Assembly (NCBI GenBank): GCA_040954595.2
Contig: CM082577.2
Coordinates: forward strand, 5,568,301 to 5,632,300
Length of the DNA: 64,000 nt
Source: Balanoglossus misakiensis
Lineage: Eukaryota > Animalia > Hemichordata
Direction of reading: 5' to 3'
Shown: piece by piece, positions 8,135 through 38,858 of the stretch
Position numbering within the stretch: position 1 is the first letter of the stretch
Layout: every line of letters begins with the position of its first letter
Notes under the pieces: generated by a model
The model's database searches: none
What the model saw: only the letters and a program-made list of their open reading frames with translations
Told to the model about the DNA's origin: nothing
Translations under genes and position numbers: made by a program

Positions 8135-8374
8135 TCACCAAAGCGGGACCGATGAGTGAGGAGTGGTGTGGAGCAGTATCCGTAGTTTATCGACGATGTC
8201 ATTCCGTTTCTTCATATAAAACGAATACAAGTAGAGTTTGACTGTGTAGTCTCGATCACCATGAGGATTTTCGTGCGGAATCGACAGCGATACGATCCTA
8301 GCAGTCGCCCAAGACCGTGGATCACGATTGATGTGACCAATTTTGCAGGGACTCACATCAGCCATATCAAAGAG
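8135..8374 (+). other. Putative non-coding first exon of the MUS81-like gene
   Basis: CpG-richer region with CCAAT near 8117 and a consensus donor GAG|gtaagc at 8374/8375. An acceptor tag at 8917-8919 precedes the ATG at 8935. The 5' boundary is approximate. Confidence 0.45.
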
Positions 8375-8934
8375 GTAAGCTTCCCTTGCATCAAACTTTC
8401 CAACGATCCCTACGAATAGCTACATTGTATGCTTCTTCGCAAAACCCTTCGTTCAGATCCGCGCGGTTCACACCGACGATCACACCAAGAAAACGCTATC
8501 TTCTTTCCTTCGCCATGTTCATTCTTCGCGAGGGTCCGATTGTTTGTTTACATAGACGCACATTGTGTATTGTTTATTTACGTGTCAGCTGGTAGACTTC
8601 CGGTCAGTGAGAGCTTGCACGCGCGATGAGCGTGAGACGGCAAACATCCGTCATGTCCACGACCACTTCACAAATAACAAGTCAGTTGTTGTTGTTGTTG
8701 TTGGTGGTGGTGGAAAAATGACAAAAAGTAAACAAAAACAACAACAGGAAAACATTTCTAAAATACCAATAAAATTATGAAACTAAAAAATATAGGACAC
8801 ACTAGTAGTGTACGCCCTGTGTTCCCCCAACTAGCTGAAACTGTAAAAGACTACACCCAATATCTTTCTCATGAGTCATAAACTCAGACCAACATGAATT
8901 GTCCTAATACCCAATATAGATATGTAAACGACAA

Positions 8935-11900
8935 ATGCCGATGGCTAAGGTGGATGAACTCTACTACAAGGGTCACCGGCTCGCTGACGAAAATTCCATG
9001 GGCTTCTACCAAGGGAGGTTCCTTATGGAAGACAATGCCATCTTTGAAACAACCAGCAATCCATTCTGGAGTGCTTGCATGCTGGCCTGCATCAAAGAAG
9101 CGGAACAGGAGGCTGCCGCCAATCCGAATTGTCGGAACACTCAGAACTGGACCAAGAAGACAATAATACACCGGGCTGCTGCACTGGGAGTACTTTACAA
9201 TAGTAACAAGTGAGTATGGTAAACTTCATTCTTGTGACAGCTTTTTATCTAATGATATCGAAAGATAGAATAATTATTCATACCAAGGACCTGAATTATA
9301 ATTTTGTTTCTAAACTCCAAGTATTTCATGTAATTTTTCCCCTGGATACAATCTCCATGTTATTACTGGTAGTTACTGAACATATTCTCTGACATTTCAG
9401 CACACAGGAAAGACAGCCACCACCCTTCGAAACTATTGACGACCTGGAGAATTTCCTGCAAAGTCACGGCAAGAAGGAATTGACCATGAGTCGATTCACG
9501 AGATTAAAACTTGAGAAGTTCCACAAAGAACTCATGTACGAACACATCAATCGAGCTGATCCAATTGGTGCGTTTGTACACGCCCAGGCCGTTGCACTAG
9601 GATTCAGGACAGGTGAGTGGACCAACCAAGTGGTGAAACTCTGTGATTGGCCAGATCTCAACTTTCCAAATTTGCATGTGGAGATTTAACCAATAACAGA
9701 GAGTGTTACTTCTCACCCTTCCAGATGATGAAGACGACACCATTGAGCATTTCATGGATAACCATCATGGAGGAGGTCATAATGGAGCAAGAAGAGACAG
9801 AGGAGCTGGGGCCGTTGGAAGGGGGCGAGGGGGTAGAGGAGCCAGATTGGGAGGTGGAAGGGAGGGGGCTGTTAACGGAGGTGGTCAACAAGGAAGAGGG
9901 GGTGTCGGCGCTGGGAGAAGTGCGAACAGGCCGACCAGGCAAGGCAACGCTGCTGGCAGGAGAAACAGACCAGTGATGTGCGCAGACTGCGAAACGGAAA
10001 CAGCCACAGTGTATTGCAGGGACTGTGAACAGGGCTTGGCACTGTGTAATCAGTGTTCACTCAACATACATCAGGGGGCAGCCAGGAGACGCCATCAGAT
10101 TTCAGGTGAGGTCTTTGCAAAAAGTCAAGGCACATGTTATTGTGTGTGTTAGCATTATGTGACTACATGTACTGGTAATGTACAGCAGGATGGTCTTAGA
10201 AATAGTTGTTCTGGTGATAGTCAACTGCTAACACCTTCACTTATATGTATTCATTTTGTGCCATTCTTTGCATTAGATGTATCTGAAGCTCCCAGAGTTG
10301 TATCATACACTCCTAAGGTAAGTCGACTGCACACTTCAACTTCAAGTGTACACTGTATCCGCTAGACATTATGGATAAAGTTGAAACATCCTAGATGTCT
10401 TTTAGCTCAAACCATTACCGAATAAAACTGAACGTAATAACCAACCACAAGACATGAATATGAGCAGTTTCAGACCTGTATACTAGTATTTGCATCTAGA
10501 CAAGTGTACACATGTATATCAATCCATGTTGCTAAACTTTTATTATCTTTTCTGTGTTTTTCAGTCATTCAAGGCACCATTTGCATTATTAGTTGCTTTA
10601 TACTAGTAAGTATATCAAAACAACCCCAAATTCTAAAGATCATCATCAGGTGATGGAATTGATGGATGTAGAGAAGGGAGAAGAGGGGGGGGGGGAGTGT
10701 TTTAGGTCAAGATATGTAGCCACTCGTCTTCTTTGCTTTTTCTTCACTGAATGATGTCTGTTTTCTTGACAGTGGGATCACAGAGCGACCACCACTTCTG
10801 AGTATGACCGCTGACGAAGTCAAACTCCGAGCTCAGAAATACACTGATACAGACCTTTGGAATAAAACTGCAGGTATGTGTCCCTGTATTATTTTTTCAT
10901 TTTGTGTCATACACAGTACATGTTCATATATTCCAAAGAAAATTTTCATGGTGTGAACTGACTTAATATCTATTTATGGGTGCAATTCTTTCAATTTCTC
11001 TGTTGCAAAGGTCGTTTCTTCGGTGGGTTCGATAGCATGGACAAGACGCTGGAAAAACTTGGCTTTGTTCAGAAAGAAGGCGGGCAGGGATCAAGGTAAG
11101 GTCCTATCACAGTCTATTTGATCTTGGCTGTGCATGAACATCAAGCTTTTACACACACTCACTGCTTATCAGTGACTTCAGACGAGTTACAATTTTGCTT
11201 CAAAGTTGAATTAATTTACCAGTACATTCCATATACACGTCTGAGATAGAAACAAGCACTAGACTCTATCACAGCCCTCGTCTGGGGCTACAAGGTCTTT
11301 TTATTGAATGCGCTCAATCACAAATGTTCAGCTTGTCTGTTGATAATATTTCAGATATGCCCTACAAGAGGCTGGTAAACCACTGGCTAGAAAGTGTGTG
11401 GAGTTTCGCGAGGCTGTTGATAGACTATACACTGTGTACAAAATTCCCAAAGCCCCAGATCAGTATAGGTAAGTTGAGTTAATGCAATCTGTTGAATTTT
11501 TAATGTTTGACATGGTGACTTTGACTGACACTGTGATCACATTCACAATTAATGACATTTCTAATCTTTTTGACTATCTGCAGGGCTGTGTGTGGATTAG
11601 GCACGGTGTGTTTACTGATTGACCATCATGAACCCCTCAAAGACAGACTCCTTTCCATCGCTAGGGAAAAGAACATCCCAGCTATTGTCAGAGAAATCCC
11701 TGTGGGTGACTTTCTGTGGGTGGTTTTGCCACCTGATGTGGACATCAGGTACTATGATGGAAACATGCAGCATAGAGAAATGGTAAGGTGGATTTTTATG
11801 CTTGTGGTATATTAATTTGAGTTGAGGTTTAATGAACAGTGCCCTCGGTGTCACAAATGAGATTTGATTTTGTCTTTTACTACAGGTGCTGCCACACGTG

Positions 11901-14900
11901 GTGGAAAGGAAGACATGGGACGATTTGCAGGACAGCATGAGTGGCACCAGATACAGAAACCAAGTGAAAAACATGAAGGTAGGGGAGTGGTTATGATTGG
12001 AATTTCTTCATGGATAGCTATCACTCTTACTGCTCGTAGCTTCCACTCACATAGCTTTCACTCTTACTGCTCATAGCTTTCACTCACATAGCTTTCACTC
12101 TCACTTGCTCATAGCTTTCACTCTTACTGCTCATGGCCTGGACTATTAGGTTTAGGCAGTACCAGTTATGTTGCAAACTTTCCTGTTTTGATGAATTTTC
12201 TGATTATGGTATCACATCGGTAATTTGTTAATTTGAATGTTCCCCAACATTAGCTGTGTGGACTGCGTGACCTGTTTTACCTTATGGAAGGATCCGTTTA
12301 TGACATGAAAACCAAGCCCACTCCCGAACAACAGATAAGACTGCAGGTTAGTACACAATTACCAATCTGTAGTGAATTGAAATTGAGTTGGAAGGGCATT
12401 CTATGGATCTGCCATTCATTCACGAACCAGTGCAAACAAGGTTCTCCGTTCATGGGTACTGAGATTTCATGACACTTCAAAAACTCTGCAATAAGTGTTA
12501 TGTTCAAATTGATGATTAGTACCAAGATGTTGTTTTCTTTACAGAATGAACTGCTGCGACTGCAAGTCAGGGATGGCTTGTTGGTCAATTACACCGGTTC
12601 TTGGTTGAAGACAGTGCAGTGGCTGCTGCAACTTACTACCATGGTAACAGGTCTTCACGATTCAGGTAAGTGATCTAAGAACCTGTTGTTTTTATAATTC
12701 TGGGCAAATATGATATTTCAGTATGATCAATTATGATGATCAATTTTGTAGGGGTCAACAACAACCTGATGAGCTTTGCAGACTTGGATGATTTGGTGAA
12801 GACAAATCGACGTCTACATCCACAGGATGATCAGCAAATGAAATCAGGTGGGTTTTTTGATATTATACTAATAGGACCTAGTAGGAGTTTAACTTGTCCA
12901 CAGGGACTTGCAGACTGGGGTCCATCCCACATACTCTGTCATACTGTTTAATTTGTATTTTGATGTACTCAACTTAAGTATTTTAGTTTATGAGGAAACA
13001 CAGCATACTTGCTTAAAATTGCCAGTGAATGGCTACAAAGATAATTTGTGTCCTTTTTGTGTTTTTTTGCAGGCACAGTTTATAAGTTGCAAGGCAAACA
13101 TTTTGTGGATATGATATTCAGGTAATGTTTTCTCAGTTTTCTTTTGGTACAGCTTTTTCCCATTATAAATAAAATAGGGAACTGAAGACCATTGGCAATG
13201 GTCATTAAAAGGGGATCAATTTGTTGTGCATGCACCTTCGCATTTATTTCAGTTAATGTCATTTTCAACAAGTGTGTTTAAAAAAGGTTTCTTCATTATC
13301 ACATTCAGTGATTTTCAGAATGAAGTAAAATTTACAGACGCGGTGAGAGCTGACATTCAGAGTGTACCGATGAGACAACGTGAGCGGAGAAATCGGTCTC
13401 TTCTTGTCATTGAGAATCTACGCGAGTATAACAAGGTGAGGATGGACAATACAGAAATTTTGTTTCTGCTATTGTGACAACACATTTTATGATAATAGCC
13501 TTCTGGATTTCATTCAGTACATGTACTTCTGTGATGATTTCTGTCTCACTTGCATATTGGTTATCATCTCCTTCTACACTGCAAAATAAAGTCAGCACAA
13601 GATTTTGGCCTGCAGTCATTGTTAATATCAAATTTGATTTGTCTTTATACAGGAAAGACAACGATTACTCGACAGAGCTTTGGCTTCCTACATCAACCAA
13701 CCCATGCCGGGCATTCCTGCACATGGTAAGTCCGATATGTACTTCGTTTTTTTTTCTTGATGAGCCAGGTCACTGCCAAATCTAATGTCTCAAATCAGTG
13801 TACATGCGGCCTTATGTTTGTGGATGCTGCTCCATAGACTACATGTACATGTATCTATAATGGTTGCTCCTAATAAATATGGAAGGAGGAGAGATATTTC
13901 ACCAAATGCCCAGGACCCTGTACATGTGTACTTGCCACTTTAACTTATGTATGTTTTCTTCATTTTTGACAGAAATTGTGGAGAACGAACTGACAGGGTC
14001 CGTTCTTGAGCTGGTTCACTTTGATGCATTTACATACTGGCAATTATGGCTACAGGTAAGCTCATGTCTATTTTAATATAGCACCATATTCTCCCCAGAT
14101 GTCTGACAATGAAAGAGCCCAGTGCTGTGATACTGACAGTGACCCCTAAACTTGCAATCATAGACAGTTGTACTACACTGGGAAATCTTTCAGTTTTTCT
14201 GATCAGGCATCCTCAGTTGATCTAACTGCTCTCTTTCCCAGGTTCACATTGGTGTGTACGTTTGTAGGACAGAAGCAGCAGATGAAACTCAGAAAGTTCA
14301 GAGGTTGTTTGAAGAACATTACAGAACAGGTAAATAATACATGATGAAATGTCCGACTTGGTCTCTCTCATCATCATGCCAACTCTATAAACTACAACAT
14401 GTTTTCCACTTTCTGACCTGATTATTGTATTTGTTCCTTTCACTATGTGCCAGGTCCGACAAGAACATATCCTCATCCAGGTCCAGATGGTAGAGATGAC
14501 GGTGGCGATGACGGTAATGATGCCCATGATGGTGGTGATGGGAACAGAAGGGGGAGATCCCCAACACATTGGAGGAATCATAGAAGAGGGAGAAATCCCT
14601 CAACTTCAAGAACAGATGAGTCTCATCACCAAGAGCAGATTCCTCACATTGCCAATGTGGCCGACGTCACTGGTGACTTAAGTATCCATGGCAACCAAGA
14701 TGATGGTACATTTGATATGGAAGACTTTGCAGCTGATTCACAGTCAGAAGATGCCATGTTACAGCAGGTATTTATTTGCTCTTTACCAATTTACCCTTTA
14801 CATGGTGTGTTTCAGAATTACAGTTCTACCAATGAAAGAACAGAAATGATATTTGCAGGAAAGATTGTCTTTAGTAGGAAGTAGTATACATGTAGTATAA

Positions 14901-17900
14901 TGGCAATACGACAATCAAGCTTGTAAGTTTTTTTGTCTGTTGAATGTGTTTGGATGTGCCTTGCAGAATCAGCATTTTTGACCGAAATATTTCTCCATTT
15001 TTGTGTCCCAGAATGCTCTCACTTGCTCAGTTAATTGCAGTAGTACTAATTTTGCTATGTCTTGTCTGTAGGTAATGGCACTGAGTGCTCAAACAAGTAT
15101 ATCAACCGTGCACGAGGATGATGAGCAGGTGCAGTTAGCTCTTGAAATCAGCAGAGAAGAAAGCAGGTCAGCCCAGAAAAAACAGAGGAGAAGGACAGGT
15201 GATCAGGCTGGGCTGGAGAGTGGGAGAGTGCTAGATGAGATTCCGAGATCTAGGCCTGTGGCTGAACCACTGATGGCAAGAGAGGTGGCAGGGAGTTCAG
15301 GGCTTGGTCCTCGAAGAAGCACCGGCACGCCAACTAAGCAGGGCACACCACGGAAAAGAAGTGTTTCAGACAATGCAACGATGTCGCCACCCGGTCAAAC
15401 GCTACAAACTGGGTCGTCTCCAGATTGTGGTCAAAGGTCAAAGAGTGCAAGGAAACAGGGCAGGAAGGAGGGAAGGCAGGCTGAACCCAGTTCCCGTCAG
15501 GAAGGGAGGGATAAAGACGCAAGGGTTGGCGACTCGGAGGATGAAGACTTGAAGCGGGCACTGCAACTCAGTCTGGAAGAAAGTCGAAAAGCTGCGTCCG
15601 AGGGAACAGGGAAAAGTGAGAGTGCGGAAGATGAAGATCTGAAGAGAGCGATAGAGTTGAGCCTGAAGGAGAGCCAGATGTCCACAGACGATGTGGTTAC
15701 ACGGCAGAAGGAAAATTTGGCAGCATCATGTAAGAGCCACATGAACACGCATGGTAAGGAGATATTGGCACATGATAAGAGCATGAGTGAAACTGACACA
15801 GCATGTGACGGGGTTGTGATTGAACAGGACAGTGATGACACACTCGATGATGTTCCCATGCAAAGCCTTGACGACTCGATGGACCTAGAGAGTGACAGGC
15901 ATCACAGAATTACTGAAGATGTGTACGCAGGAAACAGCACGGCCCCGGAACCTGCATCGAGCAGACTAAGTCATGCGACAGCATCCAGCATTGTGGGAAC
16001 AGCACGTGATCTGGCAAATAAACCAGACTGCGATTGCAGAGACGGATCTGCAAGCAACAACAGTGTGAAGACTAGAGAGAGCAGTGTTTGTCAGTTATCG
16101 TCCGACTGTGTCAAGTCCAAGGATCCTGGATTCACCCAAACTGATAGTGACAAATCAGTAGCAGAGAAAATATCCAAAGAAGATATGCCATCCCAGCTAC
16201 CTGATACAGTCTGTGTATCTTCACAAGTTTGTAATGGGGCAAATTCTGGCGCTGTTGAATTAAAGACTTGTGCATTAGAGTCACCAGTAGATGAAAACCA
16301 CAATATGATGTCTATGAAGGCAGTACCTGAACAAGAGAACTTTGATGCTGAAACCATGTCCTATAATTTCAACTTTTCTGATCCTGAAGAGGAGATAAGC
16401 GATGGTGTTAATGAGGATACAGAGAAAGATTTCAAGAGAGAGACAGGATTGACTGTGCAGGAAACTGAAAAATCCATCCAGCCTGAAAACACCATCTTGC
16501 CCAGTTCAACATCAACACAGTCAAAGTTTAGTCATGAGCTTGACAACAACTGCCAAGAATCTCTGAAAATTACACCTGGTGATAGTGCCAGGTCATGCAA
16601 GACAGATATCAGTGTCAGCGTCGACCAAACCACTCCTTCCTCCTTGACCAGAAACCACAGTGCCAACAGATCTCTAGATGATCACCCCGTGGATGATGCC
16701 ATTGATCTGACTGATTCGCAAGAGTCTGAAATCGATCTGACCAGGTCGCAGGGACTTTCTGATTCCCAAGAGTCTTTGTATGTGTGTGACGGTGATGATT
16801 TCATTCCGGTTATCTCAAAAGAGGAGAATCCTGACAATGCGAGGAAGGAGAGCGTCACTGAAGACTGTCTGTTCAGTTTGCTTGAATCATCACATGACGG
16901 AGGAGATAGCACAGGTCAATCAGCGGTCGTGACAAAGCCACAGGACAAGAATGGAAGCAGGGTCAATGTTGTCACGTCTAGACGACAGAACAGGAATGGA
17001 TCTCCAAGAGGCGGAGGGGAGAATGTTGACAGTGTGAAATGTGGAGGAGATTCGGGAAACGGCGGAGAAGATGCTGAACTGGCCAGGATTTTGCAGATGA
17101 GTAGAGAAGAATATGAGATACACCAACGACAGGGGAGAGGAGAGGTGTGGACCGACAGAAGAGATGACACCACAGGAAATAAGAGACAGCGTCTTTCAGA
17201 CGAAGAACTTGCGAGGCAGTTACAGAGACAATATGAGCAAGAGGCAAGTCAGACTCCACGAAGAACCGAGATCCCAGCATCGGATCGTGTCCCGTGGCAA
17301 GACATCATCACTGCCGCAGCCAGCAGGGATTACAACAGATCGAACACCAGGGCGTCGCCTATGAATGCTGCACCACATGCTGCAAGTCCAACGGCCACCA
17401 AGAGACGTGGAGCTGACGATGATGAGTGGACGGCCAAGAAGCAAAAAGTGGAAGAAGAAAAGGACTTTGAGATTGCCCTGCGCTATCACGCTTTTATTAA
17501 CGACAAAGGAAGTAACAGCTGTGATGAGGATTTTGGGAAAAAGAAGACATTGAATAAGCCAACTCCGAGCAAATCAAAACAAGCTTCTATCAACCTACAG
17601 AAGCAGGTAATACACATGTACTAGTATTTCCAAAAGAATCAAATTCCACATAGATATAGATTGGGTGGGGGAAATTGTCAGTTTTCTGAAAGGTGTCTTG
17701 CTATTGGTATATTATTAGTAAATAAGTATATTATTGGTATATCCAGTTTTGATACATTTTGGCAATCATATATGGTATGTATTCATTGAACATCTTTATC
17801 TGAATTCCTCTTGCAGCTGGAAGAATACAGGAAACAGATGCGAGAACAAAAAGGTCAAAGAAACCATGGCAACATGCCAGACAAATCAGGTAACAAGTTA

Positions 17901-19509
17901 AAATGATAAAAAAAATTGGGTTTGCCTGAGGGGATTCATTTTAGTTTTTCATGGTGGTCTAATGAATGGTCAAGGTGCTTATTGTGTTTGGATTAGTGAT
18001 CATGTGTCCTTTACCACCAGGTGGACTTCTCATTATCTTTGCATAATTGATACTTCTCGGAGGTGTTTGACAGGACAGATAAATTTCCGTGTGTACTCGT
18101 GTCATGTTTATCTTGAGACTGAAGATGCTGGGTTGAATGTATTTCATTTCTGTTACACGATCAGTAAGTTCACCTATGGCCACGACCGGACCAGTTGCCA
18201 GGAACCACCACACCAGGCCATCAGCCACAGTGCTACCGAGGACATCAACGTCGAGGGTGGCTACTCCATCCAGGGTCCTGAACACGTCATCCTCCCTGTC
18301 ACCAAGACTGTCAACACCTTCAACAGGCATGTCACCAGCAAGGTCTTCAGTGACCTCTGCGTCGCCAAGACCCGGGCTGTGGTCACTGTCACACACTGTC
18401 CCAGTTGCCAGTATTGACCTCAGTGATGATGATGATGATGATGATTTGCCAGATGTGTCTCAGTGGTGAGTGTTTACTTCTACTGGAATTTTTCTGGGAA
18501 CTTGAACTTAGCTCATTAGTATTTACCAACAGTGGACAGACTGAACAAGTGTCCATGTGTCAGTTTTGGGCATTTCACATCAATGGTTTCTGATACTTCA
18601 TAGGAAATGTTTTGAAGCATTAGCTATAAGATTTCAGAGGCCAAAATGGAGATTGAAAGATTAACCTATTCACACCCTCAACTTTTCTTATACCTGACAG
18701 CTTTGGTAAAATGCCTTCCTCCGCATTCAGTTCTTTGCCATCCTCAGTGTCTAGTTTCCATCTATCATCATCGATGTCGTCACCAGCAACATCCGCACCT
18801 CACTGCAGCAGCACTTGGTCTCCTCCAAAGAGAACAGCCAGCCCTCCTCCCCCACAAGTCCAGCAGGTGAACAGACAAGCCAACATGACCTGCGGGAATT
18901 GCCACCAGAAAGGCCACAACAGAACCAGCAAATCATGCCCTCAGTACTTCTCGGAATCCGAGGTAGCCAGGCGGAAGGTAAGGAAAAGTATTTAAATGCA
19001 CAAACAAATGCTTATAGTTGGTGGTAAAGGGTCATATAGACATTGCTGGACCACCCTCAAAGGACTGAATCTGTTTTACATAGAACATTGCATTAGTCTG
19101 TGTGATGCTCTAGACCTATTGCTCACACTATATGAATTTTCATAGGGAGGGGGATTTACTTTGTATATTTTTTAACGTATTCATGTATGATATTACTTTG
19201 CAAATTACAGGAGAGAGCTGATAAGATAGAGCGTGAAAAAGAAGAAGAAAGACAAAAATTGGAGAGAGTGTTGACAAGGCTGGTAGGTTGTTTGTTTGTT
19301 TGTTTGTTTATTTGTTTGCTGTTTTCTAAAGACATTTACAAGAATAGTGTGTTGATCTCGTGAAAACATTTATTTGTTGATTTCAGAGAGAGAATGATGA
19401 GCAAGTCCAACAATTCAAGGAGCAGGTTCTGAGGAATTGTGACAGTTTAAGACTGACTTCACTGGTGGAAGAAGTGAACAAGATGAAGAAGAAGAAACGG
19501 AAGAGATAG
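8935..19509 (+). CDS. MUS81-family (XPF/ERCC4) structure-specific endonuclease-like protein with B-box, winged helix, EME1-like segment, UIM/SIM array and zinc knuckle; 25 exons, ~1988 aa
   Basis: Exons 8935-9209, 9401-9612, 9725-10105, 10277-10317, 10565-10605, 10773-10873, 11011-11095, 11355-11468, 11584-11782, 11886-11978, 12254-12346, 12545-12665, 12752-12847, 13073-13121, 13309-13435, 13653-13725, 13973-14055, 14242-14329, 14454-14767, 15072-17606, 17817-17889, 18165-18465, 18701-18977, 19211-19282, 19387-19509. Total 5967 nt, open and phase-consistent. ERCC4 motifs: LIDHHE, PVGDFLWV, VVERKTWDDL, RYRNQ, LFYLMEG, LQVRDG. MUS81-like winged helix YTPK..APFALLVALY..RYALQEAGKPLA. C-terminal KKKKRKR NLS. 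Confidence 0.85.
12015..12133. repeat. Intronic minisatellite with alternating 22- and 15-bp units
   Basis: TAGCTTTCACTCTTACTGCTCA and TAGCTTTCACTCACA units, about 6 in total. Confidence 0.85.
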
Positions 19510-21904
19510 CTTCCAACAAACTTGAGTTTTGCACTTGAAAAACAAAGAATTTTATATCATGCAACTCACTGCCAAACCATTTTATTCATGATCTCATTTA
19601 TGTTTAAAGTTGACTTGTTATGTACTTTATTATAGCATGCATTTTATTATAAAAAAAAAAAACGAACTGGAAACGTAGAGCTTCTTCACCTTGTGTTTGG
19701 TCGTGTGTATGTATATGTGCTTGTATGTGTACATCCATGTATGTGTCTGTCTGTGTGTACATTGCCGACTGAAAAACAGCAGCAAAGATTATCTGAGCAT
19801 CTCTATAACCCCAAAGCATTGATCTGGACATTCAATCCCCCAAAAATTCTGGGTGGTTCATTATCTCGGTGGTAGAACATCCAAAAAATGTCAGGATGCT
19901 GTTCAGGTCATGTCCAAGGTTCCAGTGCAATATCTTATAAATCCTTCCAACTTCCAATATAATTTACCCACACAGTAAATATAAAGGCAGCGTGTCCCCT
20001 AAGGAGTACCCTGACTTTAGCTAAAACTTGTGATGCAGACAGTTATTTTTCTTATACATTTATTTTCAAGTATACAAAGCTAAACGACTGACGCTAGCCA
20101 GCTATATCGCCTCCTATAAGGACGCCCTCGACCATTGTTCGTAATCTATACTTTTGTTTTTATTGATTGCTGTACTTTTTGTTTTTCTTCCGTACATCTT
20201 GCAAGGTTTGTCCCTAAAGTTTCATATAATATTCATATTAAACTCGGTCAGTCTGCCGTGCATTTAGAGAAAGAAGGGAGAGGTATTTTTACAGTATGAA
20301 AACCCAGTTTCAGTCTTCAAGTTGAGTCTCCAGATATTCTTTACTGGAAGATAAGTACTTCGACTGTAACAACTAAACCAGTAGACATGCATTGTTTGTA
20401 AGATTATCACACATCAATTTAAAATTGATCTCATATTCACATATTATTCATATATAGTGTTAATTACATGTAGATTGCTACAACACAAACTGAAGTCATC
20501 GAAAAAAACACAGGACACCGCCAGCGTCCTGTATAAATTATTTATCACTTTAAATACACACTTGCACCTGTGCATTGAAGGATCACAGGAAACACTGACA
20601 TGGTAATATTATTATATTGATAAAAAATACCAATAATATGAGGAAAGAAGCCAACAAGCGTGACCGATCCTAGATTTATTTTTTCCCATATGTACGTTGC
20701 TCATATCGTTGGCCGCAGCGCACACGGTGACGTGGAAAAACGCCCATTGGCAACAATTTAATTATTTATCAGGTTACATTATGCGTTGACAATGACGGCA
20801 ATTTCTTTCGTCCCCGGCTAATTACAGTGTTTCCTAAAACACGACTGTGAAAATATCAATACCTTGTTTCAGTAATTGATTAACGGGACTGCCCGTATTT
20901 GATCACGCCCCATTGCGCCGAGGTGCCAGCCGCATTGATAATGTATGTCAACAACAACATAAACGGCGTTCGTCGCCCTTGGTTACAAATTTGCATAATA
21001 CAGCGTACTGCCACCATTCATCGAACGGTGAGCGGTGGAACAACTTTTCTTCCTGTACATAACCCCAGCTCGGGTCTTATTCTGTTCCATGTCCTTCCCG
21101 AACCCTGGGTCTATTCATCCCTGTAGTTCAACAGTGTCAAAATATACCCATGTCAGTAGAGGTGAGTCCATTCATTTAAAATGTCAGTCAACCAGTGACT
21201 ATTTTGAGGTATATTATAAAAACTACTGTCAACAGTTTACATGTTTGCCGAAGTTGACCACACTTGTGAATGCAATGCAATGTAATGGCGGATGTAGCCT
21301 TTGACAACCCGACGGGCGCTCCAATTTGGCGGCTAATTAGGATATGGACAGTGTTGACAGCCGCATTAGACCCTGTTTGTAGCCTGGCTCAGATTTTTCG
21401 AAAATGTGTTTATTAAACTTAACTTGCGATCCGATCTTGGCAGTAAAGACGTCGAAAATATCGAAGTTGCCGAGCAACATTCTCGGACTATTCGATGTGA
21501 CATTCCCACGGCGTTTCAAGTTCACAGACAACAGTCCTCTCGTTGCATTTGCAGTCTAATGAGAGTCGTGTGATATCTTATCGCCACTAAATGTGATAAT
21601 TGTGTGAATTGAAGCAAATATTTGTTTTGGTATAAATATTATTATTAGCTACCAGTACTGATACACCCTTATTCTTCTTTACAGTACCGTGCCCGAGTAA
21701 CTAGGTGCTTCCACATTTCGTAATTTATCCAGGATGATCCAAACCAAAGTTCTCTGAGGACACGCAATGTATCTGATAATGGGTTGTTAGTCTGGCAGTC
21801 TGGCACGATTTCTGTGCAGCCATAGGAACCGAGTGTCTGGCCTCAAACGTCAAAACATTGTACTTCAGCCTTCACTTCAGGGCGATTCCCGATCCCTGGC
21901 TGCG

Positions 21905-24900
21905 ATGAAGCACCCGTCTGAAAACACGGAGAACTTCGAGTTCAATCTCGGCAAGGCCCCGGAACTCCGGTGCGTCTACAACGAAGTGACGACTGTCTGT
22001 GGAGAGTGTGAATCGTGCAAGCTCGGTGCCAAACTGAACCACACCAAGGAGTGGTTCATGCGCGCCGGGGAGTACACAAAACGGAGATTCATCCTGGGAC
22101 TTGTGAGGCGCTTTCGTAGTCTGGACCTTCTGCAGTATGTCATCAGTTTGCTGCAGCCACTGCTGTACAAAGACTTCACGTATGCCCGGTCGCGGCCCAA
22201 CCCGGCATCCAAAGCCGACCAGGCCGATATGTGCGGCGACAGGGCCCTCCACTCGGGCTCTGTCGACCACGACATCACCGAAACCTGGCTGTGGTTCGCC
22301 AACTCCAAATACTGGACCAAAGCGAACTATTTGCTCGGAGTCATGCAGATGTCAGACGCCGAACTTTTATACATCATGGGCTCGCAGGCGAGAACGATGT
22401 TGAAAACGCAGCAGAAATCTCACCAGAAAGAATACCTAGATGGTACGTATACGTAATAATAAATTTGATTGCAGCAGACCAACACTCAATCATCCAGTGA
22501 GTCAAATAGCTATGTTGGTTTGGATGGAACATTTTTGGTGTATGATACCACAGTCACCAACCACACACATTCTATCTACATGTATTGCACAATGCAGTAC
22601 AACAGCATACCAAAAGTCAAGGACAGAAAATAACTTTTAGTTCCGCTTTACCAGGTGTTTTAAAAGCACTGCCATGGTTACTAACATTTCCACTCAGGTG
22701 TGTAGACACAAGCCCGGTAACTTGGCAACCAAATGATAAAGATCATGCGAGAAATAGCATATTTAATGAAAAAACACAGCAGTCAACCCTATTAATTAAG
22801 CAGACAGTTAAATTTAAAACACAACAAGCAAAAACAAACAAACACATTGGTACCACAAATTTAGTATTTTTGAAACACTGACATATTGGTAGATATGTTA
22901 ATTGGCAAACACATTGTCAGCATATGTGCATTGTGTTTGTTCTCCTATTGTCAATTTAGTTCTTCAGCACAGACATTCTGATAAGAGTGTCCTGGGCAGA
23001 GCCACAATGGTTATCAGTGAATACAACTGACAATCTATTGTGATTCATTGTCACAGAGGGTAAAACTTAATAAGGTGTCCGAGATCTGATGTTTGAGTAT
23101 ATTTAGGTAGACCCAGTGTCATTGTTAGAATACTTAGAGACAATTTAACTAAAGAGGTGAAATGTTACCAAAGAGTCATTTGGAAAAAGGAAAAACAGAG
23201 GGTGAAGATTGTGGAAATAACATTTTACATCCTAAGAAATGTTGAGGTAACATCATTTGTGAGGATGTCTTTTATAGTATGCATTAATTTCTCAGTTATT
23301 GTAGGTAAAGTCATGATGTAGGGTTGATTGACAAGGAGAGATTAAAACAAAAGAAATTGGCAAATAAGTGTTAATTTTCTCAATCAAGATGTGAATTGTC
23401 ACCACATCCCTGCCAAATTCCTAAATGCAATTAATGGTATTGTGTTCAAATAATGGAAAGGTTTACATTCTGGTGTTAGATAATAAATTTATTTTGAACA
23501 TTTTTGGCTATACACTTACAGACAGAAATATCTCTGAGTTTTCTTCTTTATAAATCTTTTTTTACTTCCTTTGTGTCTGGGATGATGTCATTTTGTCTGC
23601 CGGCATTGGCATAAAATCCTCATTCATTCTTTATGAATGTTCAGCCACACATATCAGATCCCGACAAACCGATAATGCGCTTTTTTAGACACACTAATAG
23701 CTTAGAAACCCTAATCCTATGGTAAATAGAGTTGTTGTCCGGAAAAAAACACGATAATAGGTCCAGCATCACACACCTTTGTCTCGTCTGTGAAAACGAA
23801 AACCGCCGTTGGATGTTTTATGAGTTCCTTGGAGTGTCCAAACCAACACTGTTACAGTCCGGTTGCACTGCATAGCTCATTGACTGCGTTGATTAGTTAC
23901 CATGGCAACATGGCTTCATCGGCATAAGCTGCCAATCCTGATATTGTTTAGAAGTGTCTTGCCGTCAGTGCGAGTCTATTAGTTGGGTTTGATCATGCGT
24001 CTCTCCGACAGATCTTGATTTGGATCATTGCATTTTTCTGTATTTGATTATTTGTAGTCAAATTGTCATGGGTTTTATCCTCCAGGTATTTGGTCTGGCT
24101 GTTTTAGTGGCTTCTTCTGTGCCCGGGTTGAGACCTGTCACAAGCCCTAGTTACAAGAACACCGGCAACATTTTCAAGTTGTTCTGTATTCAAGTAGAGA
24201 CATAGTCAACATGCAAAGAGAAAAGAAGGTGTTTATTTACGATCATTCATGACTTTTATTTGCAGTTGAGGTTTTTTTTCCAAGGATATCTCCAAGGAGT
24301 CAAATCATTGGTTCCAAATGTTTAGCCTGAACCTGAAATCTTGTTCTATTTTCTACTACATGTAGTTTTAATAATTCACAGATGGCTCAGTGGTAGTAGT
24401 CCTCATTATGGTAGAGTGTTGAAACAGAGAGAAACAGTGTTCCCATATAATTCCCTGTATGTTGCAGTTCTGCATTTAAGTACTTACAGAGTTAAAGTTT
24501 GTTGGTGTGTTTTCTGTCTGGCATTACCATGGTAGGGGTGCTCATGGCCAGCCCCAAGGGTGCATTGAACCATTACACAAGTGATTTAGAGGAACTATGC
24601 CTCCCAGGTTTACATTGAGTATTTGCTTCCCAGCATCACCCAAATAGCGACCAAAGCACAAGATGTTTGGTGAGGACTGGCAGAGAGGAGTGTTGTATTT
24701 GCGCATGCAAAATAGTTTCACGTAATGTTGCGCTGGCTGTTTTTACAGTTTGAGGAAACACTGTCGCCCAGAAACTGTCAATAAAGTGCAAATGTGAATT
24801 GGAATTCTCCACTGTCAAAGTTTAAACTTGGATCAAGTGAGAGTAAGGTACACGTAATTAATATGTTTTATTCATGACACCGACAGAAGAGATTAACCTG

Positions 24901-27900
24901 ACTGTTTGCATATGCCTAGCATCCCTGGAGTGAAATTACCATGATGTAATGAACGCCAAGTTTGGACAAAAACTGTTTCCATGGAGATCTACATAAACAG
25001 AAGACAATTCGCCATAAAAGACAAAACCAGATGATGATTTGCAGGTATAGCCTGTTCAATGGCATTGTAATCATGGGGTGAAGATTCCTTAACAATAAAC
25101 AGATCAATTTTAATGGAAATGTTTTTATAACATAGCTGAGATGATAGCTGAGATGTTTACTACTTGACTTGTTTCTAACACAAAAGAAATTTTGCCAACA
25201 ATCCCTTGAGATGATCTGCTTGTTTAGTTGGTTTTCCCAGAAGAAAGATTGTATTGTACTGGTGCTAATGATTATTGCAGACCTGAATGAGAGATTATAT
25301 TGCCCACAATTATTTTAATGAGCAAGGTCTCTTAAAAAACACACTGCCATTAAATGCTAAAATATATTTAAGCAATAAAACACCCCCAGCCATGGTATAC
25401 CACGAGATTTTGACCAGTTCACAACATATACGCACGAGCCATAGCGAGTGCGTATATGGAGTTGAACTGATCAAAATCGAGTGGTATACCATGGCTGGGG
25501 GTGTTTTATTGCTATTATATTATGCCGTTATATTGAAACTTTGCATAAAACATTTTAAAAAGGCATTTTCTTTGACTATGATATATGACTGTGGTATATG
25601 GCTAATATATCACGGTCACGTGTCGTGTCTCGACCAATCAAATAGCGTGATTTACACCATCAATATACTGGTATAATATAATGATTAATTAATAATCAGT
25701 TGTGATGTGATCTGAATAATTTTTTGAGACATGTTAAAATAATAAGAATCAGATCAAAACCTAAATTTTTTGTGTTTGAAAGTCCTGACAAAATTTGCAA
25801 GTGAAAATCCACTTCAAAACATTAGTATAGATCCTCATATAATGGAAGTTCAGGAACAAGAAGTTCTTGAAAATTTGCCAATGATTCAATAGATACTGGA
25901 CTGATACAGTAAAAGAGATCGATAACAATGAAACTTGTTCCATAACTTTTACAAATTACACATTACTAGCTGTCAAGTTGTTCCATAACTTTTTACGCAT
26001 TAATAGTGACAGCTTTATATCTGTGATAATGTATTGCTTCAAAGTCATCAGGGATTTTCCATTCTGTACAAGACCCACCCGAAGATGAGACACTTGTTGT
26101 AACATGTGTCATACTTCAAGATGTCTGCGGCCAAACCTTGTAGATCTCATTTCATTTTATGTATCTCTAGGGGGCTGGTGATACGAGATGAAAATGAGTG
26201 CAAATTGTCTGATTATAACTACACCCTGTTGCTATTTTTATAAAAAGCCTTTTTGAACACTGGCAAAAGAATGTACATCATTGTGTTAGACAAGCCATGC
26301 CTAACGTGGGCAAACATCTCGTTTCATTGGCACAGAAAAAAATTCAATACCCATAATATTTTATGAGGTTTCCGTGTGTATATTAAAAGGAAAACTGTAG
26401 AGCGCATTGACATTATGCAGTCTGTTGCCATAACAACCGTGTACAAATATACAAATATTGACATGTGACAGAACTTCCATTATTTACCATTGCATATTAT
26501 GCAATTAAACCTGACTTCTGTTTGCAGCATAGTAAATAAATTACTTCAATAATAATGGTAATATACAGATAAATAATATTATATTTGTTTGTTTGTTTGA
26601 GTGCATGTGTATATGTGCATGTGATATGAAATAAAAGGCCAGTGACTCTGCAGAAAACCTGCTCACAACAGAACAATTTTATTTAGTACAATGCACTTAC
26701 ACTCAGTACATGAGGGACAATTCTCCACAAATCCATCAACCCTGTATTCCCTGTGGATGCTGTAGCAATTGCATATTTTCTCACAGCGGCTGTGTCACGT
26801 ACCGATGTTAAATCAGCGTAGGCCTAATCTAATTATGACATTTTACATTTCAATTCTAAATGCGCATATGTTTTATTATGTGTAACTCAGAGGTTTTAAA
26901 AAATGTTAAAGAATTCATACAAATTTTTAAAAAAATCAGACGTGCATAAAGGAATTGTTGTAACATCCACTGTAAATTACAACAACCCACGTGAGGTAAT
27001 CTGTTGAAATGTTCATTTCCTGGCAAACGGATGGAGAGTATTTCCAGATGTATATTTTGTAACCCGGAGTCAAATCGCCCTAAATTTATAACCATTTGCT
27101 CTCTCGTATATCAACCACAGCCTTAAATGTAACAAATGTAAATTTTCAAGATAATCATTTGGTGACATGGCAGTTTGACATTGGGAAGAATTTCAGTGCG
27201 CCGGCATTGAATTGAATGTTTACATGCTGCCTAGCAACCATTGAAAAAGAAGTCAGTCGTCTCAGTGGGATGCAAATATAGCGTTGAGTACATTATGACT
27301 GTTAATTTTACGTGTGTCTTTTTCACCTGTGTTGGTCTCGGTCATGTGACTAATGCTTTCATGGTTAATTAACTATCAGTAATTACTATGGTATTTAAAG
27401 CTACACCATCATACTTGATGATTAAATTTCTTTGCCATATTCTTTCTCATTGATAGCATGTTACTATGTTTCATGTAGGAAAAAATGCATGCTAAAAGCA
27501 TATTACGTGTCATTGGCAGTTAACTGTCATGTTACGGTAAAAGCATCTGTAGTATGCAGGTATTGTAAGCAGCTACGTGTTTAGAATGTGAGCCCATTCC
27601 AACATATCTTTAGAAAAAAATTATTATCACAAAATTGTCTCTAATGACTTTCCGCATAATATTGATGAATATTTTAATTACAATCCCCTATCTGAAAAAA
27701 ATCTACGCATGTAGCGAACTTCTCCGTTATTTCCATGGCAACGCATTGATTGCACCTTGTGTAAACATACCATGGGAAATTGGATTGATTTGAACCATCA
27801 GTGTCAGGAAATTTCGTACTCTTGGTTTCCATGGCAACAAAGATCAAGCGAGAAGGCGATCAATGGGAAAGAGTTGTAGTTGAAAATTGGAAGTGATTTT

Positions 27901-30900
27901 TTGACTTCACTCACAATTTAGAATGTAATGAATTTGGCAGGAGATGAGATGTACAGCGTACCGATATTTGATGCGAGGTATTAATCATTTCAGTCGTAGA
28001 TTTGTATGCAAAAGAGCACCAGAGATTCATTCATATGTTTTCCATGTAATATTGATATTTCAACTGGCCGTATCCTTTACCGGTAGTAGGAATTGCTCAC
28101 AAGGCAGTGTATGGTTTTGTAATTTATTATTTTTTATGATGAATCAGGGTAGTGTCATGGCAGCGTACAAATCATTGGGATGAGGTTCTGTGAGGTATTA
28201 GCCAACTGATGCGTGTGAGCACTCAGCAAACAGCTCGATCAGTGTGGCACTGAAATTCTGCCGCTTCACTGATTGATACCAACTGGTGTATGTAATGTAT
28301 TGTACCTGTTGCATGTGTTGCCCATACTGATGAATTTTCAGAAGAAAAAATCCCACAAAAATCCCAGTAGAGAATAAACCATCTGTTCTAGTTTTCAATA
28401 CTAGGTGACATGATCCAATATATTCTCAAGTCTTAGACAGAAGGCAGGCACATATATCAATGGCAGCTACCAGTATTACCTAAACAAACCTGTAAAATAG
28501 TTGACATTTACTGCTGATGTTTTTATTTGATTCTCAGCCTACTCATAGCAACCAGTAAGATGTTGTTTGAACATCCACTTGAACTGGCATGGCCCAGATA
28601 TTGATCGTGAACTTTAAACTTGATCATTGTACACTATCTGTGATACACTTCACTGGGGTGCTTGCTCATTTGAGTCTGAGTGTGTGAGGCTGTAAATGGA
28701 CTGTGAGGGCGCTTCTGTGGTAACGTTTGTTTCCTTACTGCCTGACAAAACTAAAACTGTATGAGTTTGACTATCATAACTTGTTCTGCTGCTCTCAGAT
28801 CTATGGAAAGTGTACTGTAGATTCAAAAGTTTTCTGAACTTTTTTTTGAAAAACAAACCTTGAACTGGCCAGTGGTATGATAATGCCTTTTGTGTTGACA
28901 AATACTGGAGAAGTTCATTCTTTAAGTGCAAAATGGATGAAGGCTAACCATTGACAATTGTTGCTGTGGTCTGCAGAATGCTCGCTCTGACATTGTGCTC
29001 TCACTCAGGTTTCACAATGTGTTTGTCACTGATTCATACCAGTGAATAATGCCAGCAGACACACAAAGATAATAGTGATACCACCCTTTTTTTCCCTTTC
29101 ATCTTTTTTCATCATTCAGTCCAAGAAGTAGGTCACTGTCTGTGTGGTTTGTCCTCAGTTGAACTTGACAGACCCTCTCAGTCTAAACAGAACCCGTTTG
29201 CAATCTCACATCACTGGGCACTATGATCCATGCAACAAAATAACTGCAATACGTTGTTCCTATTAGAACACAAACTGACTGTTCTGAATAGGATGTGTGT
29301 TTTTCACACCTTCTCTCATTTAAAGCAAATTGCCTCATTGTCCCTAGTTGCAGTAAACACTGCACTGACAAATCGTCTTAGTAACAGGCATGCCATAACA
29401 ACACAACTGCAGTCTGTGAATCACATTTCTTGCTGTTTAAAATTCCGTTATTTCAGATGACCTCTGCAGTGAAGACACCAAGTCCCTGGCCAGCTCTGTC
29501 TATTCCTTCGACTCCGAGGACCACCCACAGTGCAATCTGCTGAAACTGGCCCGTTCCGAGTACACCACCCCGGTCACCAACCCCTTCACCGGCGACGACC
29601 TGGCCAGCGACCATGAGTACGTGGAAGACGACGACGACAACTACTCCGAGACCTTCCACTCGGAGGGCGACGACGGGCGCTCGGACCTCTCCTCCATCGA
29701 CCCCACCTGCCTGGTGATACCCACCACGCCGCGGGCCGTGGCCGGGGTCATGCGCCACCGGGACTTCATCCGGGACCTGCCGGTGCACCTGGCCAAGTAC
29801 GTCCTCAGCTTCCTGGACCAGCCCAACCTGTACAACATGCTGTGCGTCAGCAAGCACTGGCGGATGATCGTGGAGGAAGTGCACCGAGACAGGAACATCA
29901 ACCAGGCCATCTGGGAAGAGGTCATGTTGATGCAGGTTGGTATGATATGATGAACGTAGTAAAACGTCACTGTCCAATCGCTCTACTCAGCTCAGTAAAA
30001 ACCAAGTATATTATTATCGCAAGCCTTCAGTCCTTCTTAGGCACAGCCTTTCTCTCCAATGTATAATTAAATGTAATTACAATCACTTGATGGTAACAGT
30101 AACTTATCAGTCTCTAGATCTTAAATTTAGACTACCGTATACAGTCAATCTTTTGTAGTTCATTCTTGATGGCATTATATTGTCCTCTATAGTCACAGCC
30201 TTTCTATCTTATAAATACAGATAAATACAGATCTAGTGATAATTTAGAAGAGAAAATGGTAGTTGAGAATAGATTCAATGTAACTATAGCTGAAAACAGA
30301 ATATGATACATATTTTTAGACAATGCACTGCACTAACAAATAAGACAATAATGAATAACCAATATATTGCAAAGTGGCCTCATGGAATTTTGAAGCTGAT
30401 ACCAGAATATGAAATAGATGATAGCCCTCACCCCTATTTCTCTGTATATTGGTTCAGCCTCAGTGTTGACAATAGTAGTTTGGAATACAAGTTTCATCCG
30501 AATATAAATAGCTGTTGAGGGCGCTGTTAGCACAGGTATTAGGAGTTTAAATATAGAAACTTAAAAATTCAGCTATTGTCTGCAAGTTAAGTCGGGAGAT
30601 TTAGGGTTTGTTTGAACAGGCAATTCAGGAATGACGGGGACTTTGCGGTGATCGTACTCTACAGTCCACCAGCTGTTTCTAAGTCCAGGACAACCATCAT
30701 CCTTCTATATTATACGTAAATGTAGAAATTTATTCTCTGGCTGAAATATCAGAGTTTCGTGGGCTGTGTTTTCATGATGATTCCAGAGCTTAATAGTGTC
30801 CGAAATCCAGGGTTGGTATGTCGGAAGAATTCCGGGAATATCAAGAAAGTAACTTTCAAGGATACGCGGACGGAACCTAAGGATGATTTCATCCACAGTT

Positions 30901-32073
30901 TAGGTCTGATGGAACTGATTTTCGTAAGTGTGCATACAAGGACTGAAGGCTTGGCTGTGTTTGAATTGTGTTTTTTTGTGCTGAGTATTGCGTGTGATGT
31001 GAATGATTATGACTCAACAGGTCAGGAGTATCCTTGTTCAAAAATCACCAAAGACCACCCATTTCATGTAAATCGTGCTGGCATGCTTTTATTTATTTAT
31101 TTATTTATTTATTTGTTTATTTTGATGTCAAATACAATTTTGCTTAGGCACAAGAGCTATACATGCTGCAATTAATAATCAAAAGATTCAGTGTTGAGCA
31201 CACATTCACTTTCAATACCGAGCAACTATAAACAAAAAATTGTTATTTGGAGAGAGTGTGGCGATTTCTGTTTTAGAAATATTCACAGAATCACATAAAT
31301 TGTAATTTCAGTTCATATCTGAATCTAAACTAGTGCTTGCATCGCTAGCACAGCTTAGAGGGTTTTGCACATAATATCAGGTGTAGTTTACACGTGTGAA
31401 AAAATGGTCTCCACAACAAATTTACTTTAGAGATGAAAATCAAAGCATTCTGTTGTCACCTTATAATTTTTGAAAACACACAATTGCTTATGCACTGGTG
31501 CGAGCAACTACACCTAAGTGAATGCTGCATCATGGGAAGGCATGGATTTAATACAGCAGCTTTGATGTGTTAATGTTCCTGCAGTGTGGTGTATATGCAC
31601 GTTAAAAATCTTATCATCCTGTGTAATTTTCTGTAACAACCCTACCTCTGTTTCTTTAACCTTTTAACATTTTCTAGCTCATTCATAATGTCGGTGTTGT
31701 AAGTAACACAGCATTTTCTTCAATGTGGCCTTTGCTTTGCTCTTGTCGAAACTGAATTCACAATTTTTCTGAACGTAGTTTTGAGCAGTCAGTGTACACA
31801 AGTGGACTGGAAATTTTGAAATAACGTTTGTGTAAAGACAAAAGCAAAGCATAATGGCACACTAAACATTTATCAATGATCTCCAGACAGCACATATATT
31901 GCATCCACTATCCTCTTCTACATCCTTGCGTCATTCACTCTGTGTCGTATCCAAACCTATTCCTGTTCTCTCTGTTGAGTTTTAATCTGTATTATACTAC
32001 TTTGTTATATCTTATCAATCCTAAACATTAGCATGGAAATAACACATCTACGCATTGATAATATTGGTACCTG

Positions 32074-32142
<69 letters not shown>

Positions 32143-38100: not shown

Positions 38101-38858
38101 TCGAGGGCCTGGCGCAGGGCAGCAGGCCAGACACGGCGTTCAGCGACGCGAGCTCGTATCAATCATTTACACCGCAGAAAGTGACTACCTTGGAGACCGT
38201 CGTCACTCCGCTGGAATCGGTGCCCCTGGACGCCTCGCCGTACCTCAGCATGTTCTCGAGGACCGTCCAGTCGACCATTCCGAAACCGGTCCTCCTGCGA
38301 CCCCAGACGGCCAAGTCAAAGGTCATCAAACAGTCCACCATTTCCAACACGGGGGAGGAGACGAAGTCCGTGGTGCAAGACCTGTCGAGAATGAGGCGGT
38401 CCAAGAGCGTGGGCGCCATGCCCAGCACGCCCCACGCATTCGGAATGGCCGCCAGCACCAAGAAAACGAAGACGAACGTCTTCACCACGACAAGTACCGA
38501 ACCCATGGTCATGGTTCCCATGTTCATGCACGGACCCAGCCGGATCGAGCCGGGATACTGCAGCAACGAGCGCCCCGCCTCTCGTCCGCACACCGCTTCG
38601 TCGCGAGCCACGACAACGGTGTCCATCAAAGATCCGCTGAGAGTCGGCGGTCCGTCCAGTTTCCAACTACGCACCCGCCAACAGACGGAGGAGTACCTCG
38701 AAAAGATCAAAAAGATTCAAGAGAAATACATGAAGGAGAGGGAGGGCAGAGGGAAGAGAGAACAGCAGCAGGCGTGGAAGTTGAAAGCAAAAGGCCTCAC
38801 CCACGTCGACTTCAGTAAGCGACCGACACCTGTGGCACCTGAAATCGGTGAATATTGA
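21905..38858 (+). CDS. FBXW10: F-box/WD40 repeat protein 10-like (FBXW10/CDRT1 family); 9 exons, ~1234 aa
   Basis: Exons 21905-22442, 29457-29935, 33273-33514, 34989-35192, 35388-35509, 35743-35891, 36141-36283, 36594-36752, 37190-38858 (3705 nt, in frame). N-terminal CGECESC..TKEWF..KRRFILGLVRR region as in FBXW10/CDRT1. F-box RDFIRDLPVHLAKYVLSFLD..VSKHW. EERNVYCGTYNV motif. WD40 repeats such as GHAGSVRCV..LSGSYDTSIRCWD and GHRNTVMCL..VSGGKDNAVKVWN. Confidence 0.88.
23896..23909. promoter_or_regulatory. Consensus RFX X-box in FBXW10 intron 1
   Basis: GTTACCATGGCAAC matches GTHNYYATRRNAAC. Confidence 0.6.
25371..25683. mobile_element. Palindrome-headed non-autonomous element, Crypton-like
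   Basis: 33-bp perfect arms AGCAATAAAACACCCCCAGCCATGGTATACCAC (25371-25403) and its reverse complement (25481-25513), around a CACGAGCCATAGCGAGTG-centred stem. A tail with CACGTG..CCAATCA..TATAAT follows. The layout resembles non-autonomous Crypton elements as I recall them; the family call is tentative. Confidence 0.6.
26424..26437. promoter_or_regulatory. RFX X-box in FBXW10 intron 1
   Basis: GTTGCCATAACAAC fits GTHNYYATRRNAAC. Confidence 0.5.
27729..27838. promoter_or_regulatory. Paired RFX X-boxes in FBXW10 intron 1
   Basis: ATTTCCATGGCAAC (27729-27742) and the consensus GTTTCCATGGCAAC (27825-27838). Confidence 0.6.
30774..30923 (+). CDS. Putative alternative first coding exon of FBXW10 (50 codons, phase 0)
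   Basis: ATG ATG ATT CCA...CTG ATT TTC|gtaagt with a perfect donor. It is phase compatible with the exon at 33273 and encodes MMIPELNSVRNPGLVCRKNSGNIKKVTFKDTRTEPKDDFIHSLGLMELIF. Confidence 0.5.
32074..32149. repeat. (GACA)n tetranucleotide microsatellite
   Basis: Direct tandem GACA run. Confidence 0.95.
36262..36425. repeat. Minisatellite (~33-38-bp units) derived from an FBXW10 exon end and splice donor
   Basis: ACTGC(A/T)CTCAGACACCCCAAGT occurs at the exon end (36264) and again at about 36301 (degenerate), 36366 and 36399. Confidence 0.75.

Follow-up and report, generated by a model that had tools for sequence, protein, structure and literature searches.

A putative single-chain MUS81 paralogue with an EME1-like partner module in the hemichordate Balanoglossus misakiensis

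Eukaryotic enzymes of the XPF/MUS81 family are described, in the accessible portion of the literature, as complexes of two chains whose grip on DNA junctions depends on (HhH)2 domains. A gene in a 64,000-nucleotide stretch of the Balanoglossus misakiensis genome (assembly GCA_040954595.2, contig CM082577.2, positions 5,568,301 to 5,632,300 of the forward strand; this whole stretch is referred to as the window and all coordinates are given within it) raises the question of whether such an enzyme could carry its inactive partner on its own chain. The exons between 11584 and 12847 encode a MUS81-type ERCC4 nuclease domain (segment 1) with its linker, while those between 13073 and 14329 encode a second module (segment 2), which an earlier note on this DNA took for an EME1/Mms4-like pseudo-nuclease. 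Our analysis moderately favors the interpretation that the product is a paralogue of MUS81 with a built-in, EME1-like dead partner, and as such a self-contained branched-DNA nuclease.

The gene model and its nuclease domain

The gene model is based on splice signals, reading frame and homology. The segment boundaries proposed in the earlier note (11584, 12847, 13073 and 14329) are all bordered by AG/GT sites, and the ten exons that they enclose encode residues 460–801 of a 2031-residue protein in one frame; both the boundaries and the frame of this part therefore stand. When the model is spliced by its coordinates, all 25 introns are GT-AG and there are no internal stops. It is colinear with the Ptychodera and amphioxus proteins in tblastn alignments, and its least certain exon is 18165–18465, which consists of low-complexity sequence. 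The gene extends far beyond the part described earlier, an account that had missed a ubiquitin-like domain (UBL), a B-box, a winged helix, ubiquitin-interacting motifs (UIMs) and a zinc knuckle. The intron between segments 1 and 2 (12848–13072) is 225 nucleotides long and phase-compatible, has pyrimidines at 14 of the 17 positions preceding its acceptor CAG, and contains no AATAAA or ATTAAA polyadenylation signal. A division into two separate genes was rejected on the basis of the single frame, of this joining intron and of one-chain database models from nine named genera. The second exon of segment 2 has its acceptor at 13309; use of 13319 instead would disrupt the frame. The closest protein found comes from another hemichordate, Ptychodera flava (77% in the first ERCC4 exon and 76% over 557 residues). 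Its annotation comprises two adjacent models; the break falls within ERCC4 rather than at the junction of the two segments, and the second model holds the end of ERCC4 together with segment 2. A short array of six 19-nucleotide direct repeats, spaced by 15–23 nucleotides, is found in intronic sequence at 12013–12147.

Both segments are present in single database proteins from Branchiostoma, Lingula, Owenia and six genera of molluscs (Saccostrea, Mya, Pecten, Mytilus, Haliotis and Batillaria), and with the winged-helix/ERCC4 region as query, five proteins from amphioxus and one from Lingula were found, 1724–2026 residues in length. A segment-2 profile compared to 1.84 billion representatives matched 18 proteins, whose named sources include Ptychodera, Owenia, Saccostrea, Mya, Pecten, Mytilus, Haliotis and Batillaria (records were consulted for 12 of the 18). 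ERCC4 lies directly upstream in 14 of these matches; the remaining four are fragments of 62–121 residues and are uninformative on architecture. The 18 include no protein that consists of segment 2 alone, and neither Pfam nor BLAST identifies any of them as EME1-like. In the 22-row family alignment, the ERK motif and segment 2 occur together in 17 rows, a later part of ERCC4 is joined to segment 2 in four, and one row ends within ERCC4. We regard it as practically certain that both segments belong to one chain. The named matches include no vertebrate, arthropod, nematode or echinoderm; there is weak evidence for loss in these groups. The coral Acropora digitifera has a 268-residue protein (P0035) with the family winged helix and ERCC4 domain (54% to amphioxus), which ends directly after the nuclease domain. 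A divergent, Asn-rich protein of 349 residues (P0026) carries the tail of ERCC4 followed by segment 2 and shares the zinc knuckle of the window protein; its sequence composition suggests a non-animal eukaryote, in which case the architecture would predate animals. A search for the genomic DNA surrounding P0026 found no match. In P0011, a member of the Lingula cluster, the N-terminal block through ERCC4 is duplicated, probably as an artefact of assembly or annotation.

The catalytic signature GDXnERKX3D reported in the earlier note is intact in segment 1, with GD at 11705–11710 (VGDF, 11702–11713) and ERKxxxD at 11904–11924 (VERK, 11901–11912; Asp, 11922–11924), and the LMSF linker and the quoted motifs of segment 2 are likewise present in the spliced model. 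An ERCC4 domain with this signature is what characterizes a catalytic subunit of the XPF/MUS81 family. The catalytic Asp, Glu-Arg-Lys and Asp residues are identical in all ten lineage rows that remain after near-copies and rows without the region are discarded, and all 13 family rows with this region, which range from coral to molluscs and include the window protein, keep ERK..D. The architecture was modeled with AlphaFold2 on an 810-residue Haliotis orthologue (22-row alignment; mean predicted local distance difference test score (pLDDT) of 75, predicted template-modeling score of 0.62). In this model the nuclease domain and linker helix superimpose on MUS81 (2ziu_A) with a Z-score of 19.4 and a root-mean-square deviation (rmsd) of 2.5 over 174 aligned residues, and the alignment to MUS81 continues across the linker helix (614–624). 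The last helix of segment 1 carries family-specific invariant Trp, Lys and Leu residues. The sequence of the linker is variable among family rows. The 31-residue exon 12254–12346, which encodes a core ERCC4 strand, is exactly missing from three amphioxus models (P0002, P0003 and P0006) and present in two others (P0004 and P0005); this may be an annotation error or exon skipping.

Segment 2 and the ERCC4 fold

Segment 2 is 48% identical to its amphioxus counterpart over 135 residues and 34% identical to that of Lingula over 122 residues, and its conservation in these animals is therefore not due to chance. The Ptychodera segment, modeled alone with a pLDDT of 86.9, forms three strands and seven helices, the last elements being a helix-strand-helix. 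Comparison of this model to 48,161 representative chains placed XPF/MUS81-family proteins at ranks 1–7, in the order EME1, Hef, MUS81, ERCC1, FANCM, archaeal XPF and EME2, and 11 of the top 13 chains belong to the family. The best match is to EME1 306–447 (Z 7.4, rmsd 3.2, 104 aligned residues), followed by Hef 42–135 (Z 7.2) and MUS81 325–424 (Z 6.6). In a set of chains preselected by Foldseek, the family occupied ranks 1–14. As the complete nuclease-like domain spans EME1 247–447 or Hef 5–135, segment 2 corresponds to approximately the C-terminal 70% of the fold, in agreement with the two-thirds that had been proposed. The matched region opens with the strand on which MUS81 carries ERK; in segment 2, ERK is missing from this place in all 12 rows compared. 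The best-conserved elements are the first helix and the strand of the helix-strand-helix (mean pair BLOSUM of 2.95 and 2.53). The predicted structure thus resembles the family, and the Pfam comparison suggested in the earlier note gave no significant match and a weak lead to ERCC4: this Pfam family matched 4 of 13 segment-2 rows (best E-value 0.053). Neighbors in the ESM Atlas annotated as ERCC4, EME1-MUS81_C or Rad10, at 0.82–0.85, are also to be read as a lead only.

A number of results weigh against this assignment. The last helix of the helix-strand-helix is poorly conserved (0.79), a Z-score of 7.4 falls where the comparison tool deems unrelated alpha/beta folds common, and the Foldseek E-value is at least 0.13 for all matches to segment 2. 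A shallow segment-2 profile gave one unrelated match (E-value 1.2) against the PDB sequences, and a deeper one gave none at an E-value of 10. The hhalign score of segment 2 against segment 1 (12.8) equals the shuffled mean (12.8), and its probability against fish MUS81 is 0.3. Furthermore, the folds were modeled from orthologues (Haliotis and Ptychodera) with 22-row alignments instead of from the protein spliced out of the window itself, and AlphaFold has prior knowledge of MUS81-EME1. Such results could be explained if segment 2 were an unrelated small alpha/beta domain with a common arrangement of elements, as Z-scores for the family are below 8, G-alpha and TRAPP C11 chains reach 5.0–5.6, and the sequence and profile tests are not significant. 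This explanation is very improbable given that seven different family members fill ranks 1–7 in one register with rmsd values of 2.8–3.2, compared to 4.3–4.8 for unrelated rows (the best of which reaches Z 5.6 at an rmsd of 4.3), and that ERCC4 is the sole Pfam family matched by more than one segment-2 row. On the predicted model, segment 2 is very probably an ERCC4-derived dead fold. The Z-scores for EME1, Hef and MUS81 are tied within one unit and therefore do not single out EME1 ancestry over a duplication of the protein's own ERCC4 domain; the EME1/Mms4-like pseudo-nuclease of the earlier note holds as a predicted ERCC4 fold with EME1 as its first match, whereas descent from EME1, to which the sequence searches gave no significant link, does not follow.

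Comparison to the nuclease-like domains of EME1/Mms4 and EME2 (2ziv_B and 7f6l_B) shows what is shared and what is missing. Like segment 2, EME1, its best structural match, is without ERK and retains the helix-strand-helix, and the matched parts have a similar span (~140 residues, compared to 100 for MUS81). Segment 2 has no equivalent of EME1 247–305 and no (HhH)2, and it is fused rather than being a separate subunit; its identity to EME1 and EME2 is 15–17%, with no significant sequence match. It therefore resembles a partner subunit in its predicted ERCC4-like fold without the catalytic motif, and differs from one in having neither a complete nuclease-like domain nor (HhH)2.

Relation to MUS81-EME1 and a proposed mechanism

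Segment 2 occupies the position of (HhH)2 in canonical MUS81, as the earlier note had it. A hidden Markov model built from three canonical MUS81 tails gives negative bit scores for the window protein as well as for all family proteins compared, and the Pfam domain EME1-MUS81_C was detected in both fish MUS81 controls and in none of the family proteins scanned. A profile of the family aligns to solved MUS81 chains across the nuclease only. No N-terminal HhH was detected: there is no Pfam match to HHH_8, hhalign is not significant, and a conserved helical domain occupies that place. The idea that this domain (9057–9612) is a diverged form of the MUS81 N-terminal HhH found no support in these comparisons. 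The order of winged helix, GDXnERKX3D ERCC4 nuclease and linker helix is the same as in MUS81 (PDB 2ziu, 4p0p and 2mc3), from which this family differs in its lack of the C-terminal (HhH)2 and of a detectable N-terminal HhH, in having a second ERCC4-like module in cis, in its length (~2000 residues, compared to ~570), and in the addition of the UBL, B-box, UIMs and zinc knuckle, which are not found in canonical MUS81 controls.

A tree of the ERCC4 domain separates 13 family rows, including coral, amphioxus and the window protein, from three canonical rows with support of 100/99. This tree of 16 rows is unrooted and has no outgroup, the canonical side consists of two fish MUS81 proteins and one canonical-type protein, and one long branch was flagged. 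Amphioxus groups with coral and molluscs, not with fish, which marks the family as a paralogue rather than an orthologue of MUS81; at the level of sequence, it appears to be a conserved paralogue of fish MUS81 within the XPF/MUS81 superfamily. Of the features of canonical MUS81, the family has the winged helix and lacks (HhH)2 and orthology, so that the MUS81 identity given in the earlier note applies to the type of nuclease and not to the gene itself. In XPF-ERCC1, FANCM-FAAP24, Zip2-Spo16 and archaeal XPF/Hef, which supply top ranks for both segments, two ERCC4 folds pair through equivalent elements; these are two-chain dimers with (HhH)2, and no solved chain in the comparison has two ERCC4 folds. 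By analogy, the family would work most like MUS81-EME1 among the known systems.

The available text of PMC7048804 describes pairing of XPF with ERCC1 through the helix-strand-helix, with equivalent elements in MUS81-EME1 and FANCM-FAAP24, and the consulted part of PMC3763369 treats the nuclease and (HhH)2 dimer interfaces as independent. In the mechanism we propose, segment 2 would fold back by way of the linker helix and the brief disordered loop after it, covering in cis the face with which segment 1 would otherwise dimerize; its helix-strand-helix would pair with the corresponding element there, the two being joined by a linker of ~35 residues. We consider packing in cis to be likely. Pairing in trans, either as a head-to-tail two-chain dimer or with EME1 still bound to segment 1 and a different family member to segment 2, would suit the variable linker sequence and the precedent of the solved family members, all of which, in the sources at hand, pair between chains. 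B-boxes often serve as oligomerization modules, and the B-box of this protein is a further point in favor of pairing in trans. This arrangement is nevertheless unlikely: tethering at a distance of ~35 residues would make the local concentration of the partner very high, the linker loop (627–634) is long enough for disorder in the model, and the 18 segment-2 matches include no stand-alone protein.

Both (HhH)2 domains are called essential for junction binding by MUS81-EME1 in the portion of PMC3834828 seen, and their loss from this family counts against a self-contained nuclease, as does the apparent confinement of segment 2 among the named proteins to bilaterians, given where the Acropora model ends. 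Binding of DNA by the human MUS81 winged helix is reported in the same source and in the accessible text of PMC7516265, and the grip on DNA in this family would therefore be left to the winged helix, perhaps together with the zinc knuckle, to which this function of the missing (HhH)2 may have passed. With such a different grip, the substrate could differ from that of MUS81. It is also conceivable that the modules pair in cis without any MUS81-type cutting of flaps or Holliday junctions, the protein being a ubiquitin-signaling scaffold or a nuclease for R-loops, protein-blocked ends or foreign DNA. Pointing this way are the missing (HhH)2, the UBL, B-box, UIMs and zinc knuckle that canonical MUS81 controls do not have, the long branch to canonical MUS81, and FANCM, which retains the fold without cutting (PMC3763369, in the part seen). 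The invariant catalytic residues argue, as far as sequence can, for catalysis, and a winged helix of the DNA-binding type is retained; we therefore hold this alternative to be improbable. Our judgment leans towards an active, EME1-independent branched-DNA nuclease. The UIMs would recruit the protein to ubiquitylated sites of damage and, more speculatively, the UBL might dock on the protein's own UIMs as a switch.

Literature searches found no description of the family (most subscription journals and supplements lay outside their scope, and several papers were judged by title or the start of the abstract), and the available portions of PMC3057012 and PMC8117345 do not mention it. Some of its members carry a plain MUS81 label in databases, by which the family is hidden. 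In a wider interpretation, which we consider evenly balanced between right and wrong, the family would be an ancestral bilaterian third active XPF/MUS81 nuclease, single-chain, free of (HhH)2 and ubiquitin-guided, in which MUS81 is fused to a trimmed partner domain; it would have persisted in hemichordates, amphioxus, brachiopods, annelids and molluscs, and was not encountered in the models (vertebrate, fly, worm and yeast) on which the definition of the XPF/MUS81 family is based. If true, branched DNA would be cut without the help of a second subunit, and the DNA would be gripped in a different way. A family with an active site, without both (HhH)2 domains and with a predicted trimmed pseudo-nuclease in cis would be a natural minimal system in which to ask what role the dead partner plays, a single-polypeptide construct of ~340 residues could serve structural work and enzymology, and the family points to a DNA-processing pathway of invertebrates that is tied to ubiquitin and as yet unstudied.

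Other domains and neighboring genes

The features of the gene are listed in the table. The UBL is assigned from residues 14–95 of the orthologue model, which superimpose on variants of ubiquitin (Z 10.5, rmsd 2.3, 72 aligned residues), and from a Pfam ubiquitin match in the Lingula orthologue (E-value 8.2e-5); together with the helical domain that follows, it is 43% identical to amphioxus and to Lingula. The winged helix of the orthologue superimposes on that of MUS81 (2mc3) with a Z-score of 9.7 and an rmsd of 3.1 over 95 aligned residues, and is further matched to WHD_MUS81 with a TM-score of 0.76 and by hhalign (probability 92, E-value 6e-7).

Table. Features of the gene, in window coordinates.
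Feature	Position	Strand	Details
Whole gene model	8261–19509	+	26 exons, ATG 8261 to stop 19509, 2031 residues, single open frame
Ubiquitin-like domain	8261–9056 (end approximate)	+	Exon 8261–8374 and first half of exon 8920–9209
Conserved all-helical domain between UBL and B-box	9057–9612	+	Helices at model residues 97–212
B-box zinc finger	9970–10105	+	Pfam zf-B_box, E-value 4.6e-8
MUS81-type winged-helix domain	10277–11468	+	Exons 10277–10317, 10565–10605, 10773–10873, 11011–11095, 11355–11468
Segment 1, ERCC4 nuclease domain	11584–12665	+	Exons 11584–11782, 11886–11978, 12254–12346, 12545–12665; Pfam ERCC4
MUS81-like linker helix and flexible loop between segments	12752–12847	+	Model helix 614–624, low-confidence loop 627–634
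Segment 2, predicted truncated ERCC4 pseudo-nuclease	13073–14329	+	Exons 13073–13121, 13309–13435, 13653–13725, 13973–14055, 14242–14329
Predicted C-terminal helix-strand-helix of segment 2	14018–14329 (start approximate)	+	Helix 105–118, strand 122–125, helix 129–145 in model
Long low-complexity tail with ubiquitin-interacting motifs	14454–18465	+	Pfam UIM, E-value 6.6e-9, in exon 15072–17606
Zinc knuckle (zf-CCHC_6)	18882–18950	+	Pfam E-value 5.2e-4, 20.3 bits, slightly below the cut-off of 22

Pattern matches in the tail comprise four UIM-like, three MIU-like and three SIM-like motifs, counted without a chance control. The zinc knuckle exceeds the Pfam cut-off in orthologues, and a charged helical end runs from it to the stop codon. 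UIMs and a zinc knuckle are present in the tails of the window protein and most orthologues.

Two further genes lie downstream on the same strand. The first (~21900–38900), presumably FBXW10-like, has an F-box exon at 29444–29947 (Pfam E-value 1.3e-6) and a 575-residue open exon at 37131–38858; the second (~43900–46030) is a leucine-rich-repeat gene that we take to be PRAME/LRRC14-like.

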